From the NCBI GenBank assembly GCA_964016885.1, contig OZ024743.1:250976001-251040000 (forward strand): a DNA stretch of 64,000 nt. Reading direction: 5' to 3'. Of this stretch, positions 14,931 through 62,995 are shown piece by piece. The notes beneath the pieces are model-generated. The model did not search any database and was not told the origin of the DNA. It saw only the letters and a program-made list of their open reading frames with translations. Source of the stretch: Eledone cirrhosa (Eukaryota). Position 1 is the stretch's first letter; every line of letters starts with the position of its first letter. The translations under genes and the position numbers were made by a program.

Positions 14931-15521
14931 AGGAAAGGGCCTTGTGTTCGCAACCAGTCTCTCTCTCTCTCTCACTCTCTCTCTCTCCCACTCTCCCTCT
15001 TTCTCTCTCTCTCTCTCTCTATATATATATATATATAGTTGGAACCTAATACCAACACTGTTCGTAACTGCACTCCTTGTAATTGTTTTTGTTTTTTACT
15101 TTGCCTATATATATTTATATATATATGTATATATATATATAATGTTAGTACAAAAATGGCTTCTACAGACAGGACTAGAACTGTTTCATTGAAAAGAAAT
15201 CATCAGTTCTAATCCTATAGAAGCTATTTCTATATCAAACATTGTTTACACTCTACTAATTCATTGAGTACCTTACTGTGATTACCCCCGATTGAATCCG
15301 AGACTCATATATATATATCTATTGGAAAATTGTGAGATCCTTGGTACAGTTAGGTATATTTGAAAAAACGAAAAGAATGACTTCACTTGTAGTGTTTTGA
15401 TTTAATTTTATAATATTATAATATCATAAAATTAAATCAACATTTTTTAACACTACAAGTGAAGTCATTCTTTTCATTTATTTCAAATATATATATATAT
15501 ATATATATATGTATATATGTA

Positions 15522-16823
15522 CAGGGTGTGGACGATATTTGTTCGCAATTTTCAACTGCTAATTTTATGCAATATTTTTTTACTTCCGTTGTCACTCTTG
15601 TCTTCATAAAAACAGTGACTATATTTCCATTATATATTTTCAGAATAATTGATTATGAATAATTTTGAACCTCCATATTTGTGGAAGAGATACGGAGTTC
15701 TTCTTGGAATCTGCACCGGAAGGACAAATAATGAAATTTCAGACTTTCTCAGCGTCAGTAGGAGAATGGTGGAAAAGGTCAGAAAGGAATTGAAAGATTC
15801 AGGATTCGACTACGAAGCAACATCAAAGAGGAAAACACATGATCGACGATCTGACACCTTGGGAACATCCGAGTTCGTCGCTGAAGTTCAGGATATCATC
15901 AACAATGAACCTAGCAAGTCGATGCGTGCCATTGCAAGGGAAAAAGGCGTGGATGAAAAGCTCATTAGGCTGGTGGTACATGAAGACATTCGCTACGTTT
16001 CATACAAGATGAGGAACGGAGAATTTCTGTAAAAGGCAATACAAGAAAAGCGACTGAAGCACGTAAAGAAGCTGATCAACAAGTTGAAACACCCACTGGA
16101 GCCAGACATGCTGTGGTTTTTCTCCGACAAGAAAAACTTCTGCCAAGACCAGAAGATCAATTCCCAGAACAACAGGTGGCTCGCTGTCTCATCCAGAGTT
16201 ATGCAGACAAAGTTTGCAGCAACAACATTGGTCTTAGGTGTCGTCAGCAGTCAAGGTGATGTCATGCCACCTCACTTCTTCCCTGAGGGCCTCAAGCTGA
16301 ACACCGATGGCTACATCTGCGTTCTAAGCGAGGTAGTAAAGCCCTGTATCAACCAGGTAGCTGCAGGTAGGCCGTACGTGTGGCAGCAAAAATCAGCACC
16401 CTGCCATACTAGCTGAAAGACCCAAGCCTGGCTGTCATAGAACTTCGTCGACCACACTTCACCTGACATCTTGCCTCCCAGCTCACCTTACTGCAACCCC
16501 CTAGACTTCTTTGTGTGGGGCGCAGTGGGACGAGACACCAACAGATCTAGCTGCAATAGGAAAGACGATCTGAAGGCCAGGATCACAAGTGCCTTTAGAG
16601 GCCTAAGTCGGGGAACAGTGACGAAGGCCTGTAGCCGGTTCCGAGGTCGCTTTGAGGCCGTTATCAAAGTCAATGGCAAATGGTGGGTTTATCGAGTGAG
16701 ATCAAAAGAACAAGTCATGAAGACAAACTGACCCAAGTTTGATAAATATATCTTAAAAAATAAAACTACTGTGTTATTTTTTCCTAGACAGTAATCTTGC
16801 GAACAAATATCGTCTGCCCCCTG
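15522..16823 (+). mobile_element. Tc1/mariner DNA transposon, DD37D (maT-type), full length but inactivated
   Basis: 27-bp TIRs cagggtgtggacgatatttgttcgcaa (15522) and ttgcgaacaaatatcgtctgccccctg (ends 16823), 3 mismatches, TA on the left. Motifs WFFSD, WQQ(K)SAPCH and SPYCNPLDFFVW, with 37 residues between the 2nd and 3rd catalytic positions. Confidence 0.93.
15655..16700 (+). pseudogene. DD37D transposase pseudogene
   Basis: ORFs 15649-16032, 16084-16416 and 16471-16731 lie in one frame separated by in-frame stops. HTH-like KSMRAIAREKGV; the second catalytic D is replaced by K. Confidence 0.9.
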
Positions 16824-17829
16824 TGTATATATGAACACAGTACTACACAGTGGGACTGAACCTGAACTCATTTGCTTATGGAGCAAACTCCTTAACCACA
16901 TGGCTATGCCTGTGTGAAATTTCACCAAAATAATATTCTCACTGTCTGTAGTCCATATGTCAGTACCAGATAAGATCTTACCGCAGAAATTTATAAGGCA
17001 TTCTTGTATTGGCAGTGACAGGCCTGCACTGAGAGATTCCTTTCCCTTTTATCTGTCTCTCTGTCTGTCTGCCTATATGTATGTTTGTTTGTCTATCTAT
17101 CTGTCTGTTTGCTTGTGTCTCTCTGGATATCTGTCTATATGTATGTATGTGTATATGTCAGTCAGTATGTCTGTATGTCTATATGCCTATCTGTATGTAT
17201 GTTTATATGTATGTATATCTATCTGTATATATGACAGTTATTCTACTGTATGGTATTGTATTCCAAGTATGAGAAATTGTACTGATCTATCTACCTATCT
17301 ATTAGATCACAGCTCCTGCTACTACCACTACTTCTGCTACTTCTTCTACTACCACTGCTACAACTATTGCTGTTGCTACTTCTGTTTCTACTACACTACT
17401 ATCACCACCATCACCATCACCACTACTACTACTATAATTATTGGCCTATGAGAAAAATCTCTTCTATGTTTCATCTTTCATTACAGAAATCCTGTACAAT
17501 TATCTGATAACATACCTATTCCTTTTCTTTTATTTCTGAATAACAGTTGCTCAAAGACAGCAACTAATTCCACCCCTCATCAACTCTACTAGTCTTTCTA
17601 ACAGTTGCTCAAGGATGTCAACTAATTCTACCCAATCTTTCTTACATCTTGACATAAGGTGAACATATTGTAGGAATATGTTCACACACAATGAAGCTTT
17701 CATGGCTGTGCCTCAGCATGGCCAATCAAATGATTGAAAACACAGTGAAAAAGAAAAAAATGATGATGCACCAGCATATATATGTGTGTGTGTGTGTGTG
17801 TGTATGCAAAAAGTAAACAACACAGTGAA

Positions 17830-19250
17830 ATAAAGAAATATATTAGTTAAGCGTTTGATATAGTAGGAAAAGAGTCTTTACGTTTCAGACATTAGTCCTT
17901 CATCAAATAAAAGATGAAATAGAAAGATATAGAGTGGGAAGAGAAAAGAAAGGGAAAACAATATTTCTGAGAAAAAACACGTTTGCATTCAGTCAACCAT
18001 TTTGGAGAAGTGCTGGGCAGTGGGTATATTTGGTATTAGAGAGGTTTTGAAAGGAAGGTAATAATTGTATATTTTGAGTGGAGGTGTGTATTTAAGTTTG
18101 TTCATTGGTTTGTGCAAAAGTTTAAGGGAAGGAAGGGAATTGGACCATTATGGGACTGGCTGCTGCGAGAGTGTCGAGATATGAGTCAGTGTGAATGCAA
18201 GAGGTACAAGCACACATGCACCCTGAAGTGAGAGCACTGGGATGTGTGTGTCGGTGGTGTGTGATGGGACATATATGCATACTTGTATGCACATGCACAT
18301 ATGCATCAGAATCTGTAGGGAAGAGAGATAGTATTATAATGACCAAGGATGCAGATGTATGTGTATATGGTGCAACTGTATGCGTGTGTATGCAGGTTGT
18401 GTGCATGGAGAGCTACATATTGTGTGTGGTGAGACTGAGGGGTCTGATAGGGCAGATATGCATGTGTGGGTATAAGAATATGAGGGTTATGTGAGAGCAA
18501 AGGTATATATATGTGATAGGTTGTATATATGGGTGTTGTGAATATGACAATGTATTGTGTGGTGGCTGGAGTTATGTGTGTGTATGTGCATGTGTTTATG
18601 TGTGTGAGTAAGGATAAAGAGAGGTTAAAGGATCTGGGGTGGGGGCACTGAGTTTATTTGGGAAAGTAGTTCCAATGTGAAGAATATAGTTCTGCTTGGT
18701 CTTGTTGTGATGACTGTTGAGTAGAGCAGCAGGTGGAATGGAAGTAATGAGCAACATTGGTATCTTATCCAAGTTGTATGTCCCTCTGGTGTTAGGTTAA
18801 TCAGTCCATCAAATTGTGGCCTGTTTGTTCAATGTATATGAACCTACAAAGGAATACTGAAGGGTATAAATATCACTATTAGAGGTGTAGATGAAGAAGT
18901 AGCAAATGCAAAAGAATGCTTCATACCTGTGAGAGTAGTGAGGCTGATTATGTAGGGACAGCTATTACAGCAGGAGTGAGAGCAGGATCAGGAGCCATGG
19001 GCAGTCTTAGAGGAGAAGAAGGACCCGTGTACAAGAAAGTTATGGAGATTACAGGTATGCTTAAAGGTAGTAACATGTAAGATAGGACAGATGCAAGAAG
19101 TGACAAATTCAGAAAGGAAGGTTCAGAATCAATGAAGGATACGGTACCACAGAGTAGGGTGATAGATGGTAGGGGAGGGGAAAAGAAAGTGGATCTTAGG
19201 AGAGGGGCTGTCCTGGTGTAAGAGGGCTGCTGAGCAGTCAGTATCATAGT
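17830..19250 (-). mobile_element. Degraded Penelope-like element 3' portion (GIY-YIG remnant, 3' UTR, decayed hammerhead)
   Basis: Minus strand 18640-18900 reads FIYTSNSDIYTLQYSF..FIYIEQTGHNLMD*LT*HQRD ... QNYILHIGTTFPNKL, matching the PLE GIY-YIG pattern. A hammerhead-like motif lies at 17876-17913. Confidence 0.6.
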
Positions 19251-19714
19251 AGTAGATAAGAGCTGTTTAGATCAATGTGTCTGTGATTTTGTTAGTGCTT
19301 ACATTTATGTGTGTGTCTGTATTTATGCCCCCTAACAAGTAGTACAACAAAAAGTAATCAATAAAATAAGTACCAGACTGGAAAAAGAAAAATGAAGCAG
19401 TAAGGCTGATATTTTTGGTTAAATCCTTTCAAGATGGTGCTCCAGTATGGCCATAATCTAATGCCTGAAACCAGGAAATACAATATACTCGTAAGATTAA
19501 TAGAATAAATGAAATGGCTGATTCTAATCTATTTTCTTGTTTTTCGCAACAGGAAAAGCATATTTCTGAAGATTTTTCTCGGTTGTTTTTTTTCCCAGGA
19601 ATTTTGGTTGTGGAGGATAACATCTTTGTCATTCAGTAAGTTTAGAATTAAGCTTGGAAGATTTTTTGTTGTTTTTTAATATGAGTGTGGGGTTGTAGTT
19701 GTTGTTTTCACACA

Positions 19715-62376: not shown

Positions 62377-62642
62377 GTATTAACTGCTCGGAAGAGACCC
62401 TTCCTGGAGCTTAATTATTGTAAATGACTGAGAGTTTATTCTCAAAATATAATATAATATATATATATATATATATATATATGTATCTATCTATATATAT
62501 GTATATGTGTATGTGTGTATGTATGTGTATATGGACGTGTGTATGTATATATATATGTGTGTATGTATGTGTGTGGGTATATGTATATATGCGTGTGGGT
62601 AGGTATATATATATGTATGTATATATATGTATATACATATAT

Positions 62643-62765
62643 ATATATTAGTAAAAAGGGAAAGAAAATGCTGACAAATTGTTCCCAGTGAAATGGGAAA
62701 AATTTGTCAGCATTTTCTTTTCCTTTTTACTAATATATCACAACTCGTGTGTCACACCTCTATTT
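62643..62765. repeat. Short fold-back of the same family as 55107-55473
   Basis: atatattagtaaaaagggaaagaaaatgctgacaaattgttccca-gtgaaa-tgggaaaatttgtcagcattttcttttcctttttactaatatat, then cacaactcgtgtgtcacacctctattt, which is the reverse complement of 55107-55133. Confidence 0.92.
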
Positions 62766-62926
62766 TATATATATATATATTTTTTTTTTTTTCTTACCCT
62801 ATAACCTTACGTTCTGCTTCAGTGTGTATATTTTATTTCTCATCTTTATTTTATTATATATCAGCCTCGCTTTCAATTATAATAGCCTTTGTTTTTAAAT
62901 TCATATCTTATGTCCATATCAAATTG

Positions 62927-62995
62927 TCATTCTGATGATCGATTTCAGACGTCTCTGTTCAGCTCGTCTGTCCTGGTGAAACCTTTGGTAAATGG
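62927..62995 (+). ncRNA. Hammerhead motif with extended stem II
   Basis: tcatt-CTGATGA-tcgattt-cagacg...cgtctg-tcctggt-GAAA-cc[ttt]gg-TA-aatgg. Confidence 0.65.

Follow-up and report, generated by a model that had tools for sequence, protein, structure and literature searches.

Hammerhead motifs at the ends of dispersed repeats

We analysed a 64,000-nt window of the 3.0-Gb Eledone cirrhosa assembly (G000:C4:250976001-251040000) in which an initial annotation had listed twelve hammerhead ribozyme motifs. Very probably these sites are 3' ends, each with a hammerhead, from about ten families of dispersed repeats. Several of the families are tied to Hydra-type Penelope-like elements (PLEs) and one is a tandem unit lacking an open reading frame (ORF); the copies were likely left when 5'-truncated elements inserted at (TA)n tracts, and they are likely undergoing neutral decay. 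The sequences, the families, their copy numbers, the inverted pairs and the adjacency to (TA)n are direct observations.

All twelve coordinates hold hammerhead-like sequence on the strand originally given. Each site also matches family profiles that we built from genomic copies outside the window, while reversed sequence, used as control, gave 0 matches. As a count of twelve ribozymes the annotation stood only in part: the motifs at 32886 and 35643 are identical and represent the two inverted ends of one element, so that eleven insertions are present, and seven of the twelve sites are damaged (15159, 17876, 23795, 36139, 39492, 41847 and 47794). Every damaged site, that of family F aside, has intact-core relatives. 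Our type I descriptor required exact CUGANGA, GAAA and UH boxes, helices I and II of at least 3 bp and a paired helix III; it is passed by 32886(-), 35643(+), 40603(-), 61502(+) and 62927(+).

Rfam did not recover the motifs. Among the 150 of 223 window matches listed there was no hammerhead family, only microRNA (miRNA) noise driven by microsatellites, and 10 loci holding family copies gave 0 matches at gathering score. Since Rfam misses these variants the motifs look unannotated; the hammerhead variants of this genome fall outside the curated models.

Possible helix covariation was seen in family I for 3 of 13 pairs, with 82% of cells paired compared with 29-47% when slid, and in the F02 family for 1 of 12 pairs (97% paired compared with 18-42% when slid). 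It rests on few events among related sequences. Within families, helix I displays some compensatory change, limited in extent, which is consistent with selection on active masters.

Penelope-like carrier elements of probable Hydra type

Element A carries two inverted pLTR (pseudo-long terminal repeat) copies that are 97.6% identical over 292 nt by masked self-BLAST, which we used for repeat comparison in the window. Its ORF contains a reverse transcriptase (RT) with a YRDD motif, a CxCX5C linker and a GIY-YIG-type endonuclease with stops, and shows 90-95% identity to a 649-aa ORF at a second locus (L356). Of 28 family A loci, 10 have a same-strand PLE ORF upstream, a count that may include matches of one query translated in a wrong frame; independent proteins gave 10 of 30. 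Similarly, one locus of family C (L352) retains the full layout of inverted pLTR, pLTR, ORF and pLTR, two others (L351 and L353) have ORF pieces upstream, and 14 of the 29 loci in this family have an inverted partner no more than 1.5 kb away. A full pLTR-ORF-pLTR layout was also obtained for family I in block B11 (L327-L328). Family D has a single probable ORF-linked locus (L357), and in family E one locus has a weak endonuclease match some 1.2 kb upstream. PLE ORFs are thus clearly linked to A and C, by one full-length case each to I and D, and weakly to E. A connection between the 47794 hammerhead and the ORF at 48262-49375 was dropped: the homology of this ORF with other copies extends only to about 48185, the beginning of the family E unit.

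Both window ORFs have the CxCX5C linker, as do the ORFs of families A and I; the DKT motif occurs in the ORFs of L356 and B11. CxxC and CxH motifs occur in the 48262 ORF and two other, related ORFs. The Hydra clade lacks the CCHH motif, which has two Cys between GIY and YIG; here the ORFs of family A and 48262 have a single Cys in that interval, while the family I ORF and one relative have two. No informative match to the PLE ORF pieces came from Pfam or PDB. In Craig et al. 2021 (PMC8557442), Hydra-clade PLEs are described with the same combination of C-terminal GIY-YIG-type endonuclease, CxCX5C linker and DKT motif, with insertion at (TA)n, an inverted 5' copy and a hammerhead near the 3' end. 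Judging from these motifs, most families with a linked ORF appear to be Hydra-type PLEs inserting at (TA)n. That source mentions 'a small number' of extra Hydra families and one octopus family (4 copies), whereas we observe many families and more than 10^5 intact-core motifs; its supplement records Hydra-1_Obim of Octopus bimaculoides with a hammerhead.

A (TA)5 stretch lies within 250 nt on the 3' side of 13 to 28 of 28-29 copies per family against a background of 23%, and 11 of 13 window sites lie 17-179 nt from (TA)4. The earlier proposal that many independent PLE-type families are present, mostly as ORF-less remnants beside (TA)n, is supported. Inverted or partial-tandem copies are seen at 32842-33132 versus 35460-35751, at 47622-47744 (repeated at 48056-48179) and in the inversion at 15159. 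The sequence that copies share upstream has a median of only 125-562 nt per family.

Published PLE biology suggests how such copies would arise. In active elements the tandem pLTRs would allow two hammerheads of one family to pair via the palindromic helix III and cut the precursor RNA (PMC4209133, PMC6765202), the GIY-YIG endonuclease would nick (TA)n, and reverse transcription would begin near the 3' end and usually stop early or flip. The outcome would be a pLTR, solo or inverted, in which the ribozyme is always retained; because insertion would proceed from the 3' end, truncated copies would keep the ribozyme and lose the ORF.

A PLE of a second clade was also encountered. An open 902-aa ORF with a CX2-5CxxC linker (L303-L304, block B06:27561-30266, minus strand) is Neptune- or Nematis-like and has its own hammerhead-like 3' motif.

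ORF-less families and their relation to retrozymes

For the remaining families, a PLE ORF within 1.5 kb was found in 0 (B), 0 (F), 0 (G) and 1 (H) of 28-29 loci, the match in H being another family's ORF, and 7 longer sequences of 8-10 kb contained none for these four families. F02 is an ORF-less unit of 430-505 nt with one type I hammerhead each, present as tandem arrays (8 copies in block B05, others elsewhere) and as solo monomers. A link of F02 to a Neptune-type ORF was considered and dropped, as the adjacent PLE ORF has an unrelated 3' end of its own. We accept F02 as a putative non-LTR (long terminal repeat) retrozyme-type tandem family. It resembles the animal non-LTR retrozymes presented in PMC7229834 and bioRxiv 10.64898/2026.07.22.740005, which are likewise ORF-less tandem or solo units with one type I hammerhead; its unit is longer than the 170-400 nt given there for retrozyme RNAs. 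Unlike tandem retrozymes, the F02 copy of the window is a solo monomer with C3>U. In a further family, F11, about 30 head-to-tail intact-core units with 466-nt spacing and an inverted end copy were found at G000:C1:5738326-5752444; judged by its sequence, this run is a long retrozyme-type array.

An octamer (ATGCAAAT or its complement) is located 88-126 nt upstream of the core in five families: A (24/30), E (26/30), B (11/30), F02 (18/21) and F11 (4/5). Its background frequency is 2.5%, and only 0-1 of 29-30 copies have it in C, D, F, G, H and I. Within the window it lies at 33061, 35525, 39682, 47920 and 47986, and it is tripled in the 33-bp repeat of family E. Newt satellite 2 carries a small nuclear RNA (snRNA)-type promoter. 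Our literature search found no report of an octamer or snRNA promoter together with a PLE hammerhead or pLTR. The fixed distance of the octamer in five families bears on the ribozyme's role for the element. So does the changed GAAA box of family F, which has spread to at least a few thousand candidates: GACA replaces GAAA in 26 of 39 pattern matches, the window copy and its duplicates among the loci counted, and a first look gave 2260 candidates, while a related family retains GAAA. The spread of family F may have taken place with no active ribozyme.

Most of the ORF-less units could instead be self-standing non-autonomous retrozymes or elements resembling short interspersed nuclear elements (SINEs) that use PLE enzymes and move as short or circular RNA. 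We consider this possible, though unlikely as a general account. The tandem arrays of F02, the run of about 30 units at 466-nt spacing in a related family, and the octamer at its set distance speak for it, as does upstream sharing of at most ~340 nt in families G, H and I; elements of this kind are, moreover, described in the two retrozyme sources. Against it, A, C and I, and probably D, have PLE ORFs joined to them, and in each of B, F, G and H only 0-3 of 28-29 loci have a same-strand partner. Family I combines short shared flanks with a full-length copy, so short flanks are no proof of non-autonomy. Accepted for F02 and possible for B, F, G and H, the retrozyme account complements the derivation from truncated PLE-type insertions more than it excludes it.

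Structural predictions for RNA cleavage

Palindromic helix III, emphasized in the initial annotation, is real in families A, C, G, H, E and F02; a count of 25 of 29 for this feature is partly forced by the descriptor. Folding predictions give the correct structure for the 61502 copy alone and the double-hammerhead for two such copies together. Families D and I have monomer-type helix III hairpins and, with 3-4 bp, might cut as monomers. Loss of cutting is predicted for most copies of the window.

The claim that any long transcript across the region could be cut on either strand is unsupported. Only five copies retain core and helices, and neither the window nor the next 50 kb contains a same-family, same-strand partner for an intact copy. 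In the predicted fold the dimer's helix I forms between two copies, so that only same-family partners on one strand could work; cutting of read-through RNA therefore lacks support, and solo copies without a partner in cis are likely inert. As the identical 32886 and 35643 motifs face opposite ways, a transcript spanning them is predicted to form a duplex of ~290 bp (-452 kcal/mol) that buries both.

We compared core decay with flank decay in 8 families. Substitutions relative to the family majority affect 106 of 2206 core positions (4.8%) and 1251 of 21846 non-CpG flank positions (5.7%; p=0.08). Core decay is near the flank rate, as neutral decay predicts.

That the intact copies act on host RNA, cutting a long transcript of this region in cis or, when paired with abundant RNA of their own family, in trans, and are retained by the host for that purpose is very improbable, even though five copies keep core and helices, 61502 folds well both alone and as a double hammerhead, D and I might act as monomers and ~10^5 potential partners exist genome-wide. 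The missing partners on the same strand and the similar decay of cores and flanks argue against such a role, and no host exon was recognised among window ORFs of at least 100 aa (Pfam run on 18 of 82). Published PLE hammerheads are weak (PMC4209133), one PLE is without RNA-seq reads ending at the cut site (PMC11167929), and bioRxiv 10.64898/2026.07.22.740005 reports that 8 of 9 Xenopus dimers failed to cleave. For one PLE the hammerhead is dispensable for insertion in vitro (PMC11167929).

The derivation of the sites from neutrally decaying 3' ends of PLE-type insertions has its own weak points. For 5 of the 12 sites (families B, F, G and H) PLE origin is indicated by architecture only, the ORF links of D and I come from one locus each, and the clade assignment draws on motifs in place of a tree. 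In one of the 8 decay tests, that of family E, cores are slightly better preserved than flanks (p=0.04), and the copies compared were not drawn at random but were the 28-30 nearest to the window copy in each family. Finally, the covariation (3/13 and 1/12 pairs) is modest and may reflect few inherited events.

Genome-wide load

The full descriptor is met at 5 of the 12 sites, compared with a mean of 0.02 (maximum 1) in 150 block-dinucleotide shuffles of positions 14001-64000, confirming that the motifs are more frequent than chance; core-only motifs number 13 in this interval and 4.7 in the shuffles. To place the window in its genome we used a blind sample of sixteen 50-kb blocks at pre-set positions. 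The 16 blocks contain 62 descriptor hits in total, compared with 0.06 per block in shuffles; a core-only shuffle mean of 11.4 for the blocks is inflated by a single tandem-repeat block and was left unused. For the density estimate we excluded B09, which adjoins the window, and the other 15 blocks gave 56 hits with a mean of 3.7 (bootstrap 2.3-5.1), 7 of the 15 having at least 5. The cluster is therefore not special: the blind blocks are just as dense and the initial impression of an unusual region is not borne out. Pattern matches in the window (4, with 2.8 expected per 50 kb, P=0.32) agree with this. Profile matches number 13 in the window and 0-15 in the blocks (mean 7.75), a count that favours the window because the profiles were seeded from window families.

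Exact genome-wide counts gave 6,625 matches for the family C pattern (control 0), and 99,097 and 70,726 for two broader patterns (reversed controls 13 and 105), the second of which covers both core boxes and omits the cut site for family I. Intact-core motifs thus number at least 169,823, or ~57 per Mb. As 19 of 24 and 30 of 35 pattern matches in the blocks pass the full descriptor, structurally complete motifs are estimated at ~139,000 from the two patterns and ~188,000 with other families, the blocks giving a range of 140,000-308,000. Local density simply reflects this genome-wide load of roughly 1.4-3 x 10^5 complete motifs. The 248 descriptor hits across all loci form 29 sequence clusters, and a first look at the searched families gave between 243 and 2716 candidates for each, spread over many chromosomes. 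An origin by chance in AT-rich repetitive DNA is untenable: core-only matches do arise randomly at 4.7 per 50 kb in shuffles and seven sites fail the full descriptor, but the shuffles, the profile search and genome pattern counts more than 600-fold over reversed controls refute it, and the damaged sites outside family F have intact-core relatives.

Hammerhead PLEs are already in print, including for octopus, and the locus is ordinary repeat debris. The PLE hammerheads of PMC4209133 resemble those found here in their type I fold, the extra base between 9 and 10.1 and the palindromic helix III, as well as in occurring mostly as single dispersed copies, in opposite-strand pairs 100-700 bp apart and in many families per genome. 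In contrast to the strictly minimal form of that study, most families here have a helix III of 2-4 bp and a long helix II, only G being minimal. Published counts are ~2,000 for Schistosoma mansoni, 4,000 for coelacanth and 9,000 for Xenopus tropicalis (PMC4209133); PMC7229834 gives more than 6,000 for coral, ~5,000 for mussel and 126,247 for the 28-Gb axolotl genome, a load more than ten times sparser per Mb than that observed here. The genome-wide count is above the published per-genome counts that we found, with descriptors differing between studies. Our literature search found no published hammerhead count for an octopus or other cephalopod genome or for the Hydra clade therein. A Schistosoma hammerhead survey is said to report possibly very high numbers, which could undercut a density record.

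What is notable is the scale: at least 169,823 intact-core motifs that are invisible to Rfam. With so many copies, cutting by PLE hammerheads in vivo and counterselection by the host become testable in one genome, and sense versus antisense intact copies inside introns provide a comparison for host selection. A bolder reading holds that, judged by the published counts that we found, this is the densest animal hammerhead load, with ~1 intact core per 15-18 kb supplied by dozens of families of Hydra or retrozyme type, several of which use an snRNA-type octamer promoter, and that the load is large enough for host pre-mRNAs to be cut routinely by hammerheads that pair in trans or inside long introns, with transcript ends shaped and sense-strand copies purged from genes as a result. 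Taken as a whole this is improbable; within it the count is observed, and the promoter role and host cleavage are hypothetical.

Individual copies in the window

The units and ORFs are listed in Table 1. The 61502 motif is the best intact copy. In its typical form, family G has a helix II of 4 bp and an ACGU-type palindromic helix III. At 15159 helix I was replaced by an inversion hairpin, whose arms are the stems initially recognised; since the inversion took out the helix I arm, the copy folds as one long plain hairpin and is predicted to be dead. A pure palindrome artefact was considered for this site and dropped, the copy deriving from a real family with a stable 4-bp helix III. The core of the 40603 copy is predicted to mispair. 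A possible 14th remnant at 43715-43760(-) has intact core boxes and a 5-bp helix II, has no helix I and is unmatched by the profiles.

Table 1 Hammerhead-bearing units and PLE ORFs, in window coordinates.
Element or unit	Position	Strand	Hammerhead and other features
Family I (F03) pLTR remnant, 5' inversion	15106..15322	-	Core and helix III half survive at 15159-15206; inverted arm in place of helix I 5' arm; 4-nt insertion near cut site
Family G (F07) short unit	17776..18009	-	Decayed minimal hammerhead 17876-17913; C3>U; helix I 5' arm deleted
Family G, second copy	23729..23953	+	Decayed minimal hammerhead 23795-23830; G12>A; helix II broken; 74% identity to 17876 copy
Element A, inverted 5' pLTR copy	32842..33132	-	Intact-core hammerhead 32886-32950; predicted cut after 32894
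Element A, PLE ORF	33137..34575	+	5'-truncated, frameshifted; RT, linker, endonuclease
Element A, 3' pLTR	35460..35751	+	Octamer at 35525; hammerhead 35643-35707 with intact core and AUAUAUAU helix III, predicted cut after 35699; ends at (TA)31 tract
Family H (F12) short unit	35941..36323	-	Hammerhead 36139-36211; C3>U (most family copies keep C3); long helix II; ACUGCAGU palindrome
Family F short unit	39420..39619	-	Hammerhead-derived motif 39492-39529; GACA for GAAA; helix I reduced
F02 solo monomer, ~440 nt	39620..40070	+	13th copy, overlooked earlier; octamer at 39682; hammerhead 39764-39806 with C3>U
Family B (F09) unit	40411..40941	-	Intact-core hammerhead 40603-40651; helix III palindrome broken (AUCAAU; AUCGAU in many copies); 40411-40482 end is (TA)n tract
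Family D-like decayed copy	41815..41903	-	Core boxes intact; helix I 3 bp; helix II out of register
Family E (F04) pLTR, partial-tandem form	47577..48189	-	33-bp octamer-bearing repeat; hammerhead 47794-47843, core intact, helices I and II substituted
PLE ORF, Hydra-type, broken; different family from E	48262..49375	-	RT end and endonuclease
Family C (F01) solo pLTR	61232..61700	+	Hammerhead 61502-61556; G10.1-C11.1; AUAUAUAU helix III; predicted cut after 61551; ends at (TA)n
Family D (F05) unit	62766..63097	+	Intact-core hammerhead 62927-62995; helix III 3 bp; helix II base mutated

Other repeats of the window

The window is filled with repeats, comprising a 37-bp satellite array of 12.2 kb, numerous (TA)n tracts and pieces of an LTR retrotransposon, of LINE-like elements (LINE, long interspersed nuclear element) and of transposons. 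The satellite (1-12219) has 332 copies with a 95% match and an extreme strand skew; it extends past the window start and degrades into a (TGA)n-like region up to ~12850. A 290-bp unit occurs twice (32394-32682 and 40123-40410, 96.5% alike), each copy ending at a (TA)n tract common with an oppositely oriented hammerhead unit; no copy was found in the 16 blocks and no canonical core was seen in it. A near-perfect palindrome at 61791-62380, with arms of 293 bp (99%), is flanked by (TA)n tracts; no hammerhead was seen in it, and one blind block holds distant relatives. Palindromic units resembling miniature inverted-repeat transposable elements (MITEs) lie at 55144-55462 and 15360-15486 and have relatives in the blind blocks. 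An abundant, partly tandem SINE-like family of ~200 bp occupies 19700-21610, 29490-29710, 36500-37020 and 56570-57390, with 102 matches in the 16 blocks. The stretch 57900-61181 is a remnant of a GC-rich non-LTR retrotransposon with an RT match. The LTR retrotransposon spans 49423-54709; its LTRs (49423-49785 and 54360-54709) are 94% identical and its RT, RNase H and integrase frames are all broken.

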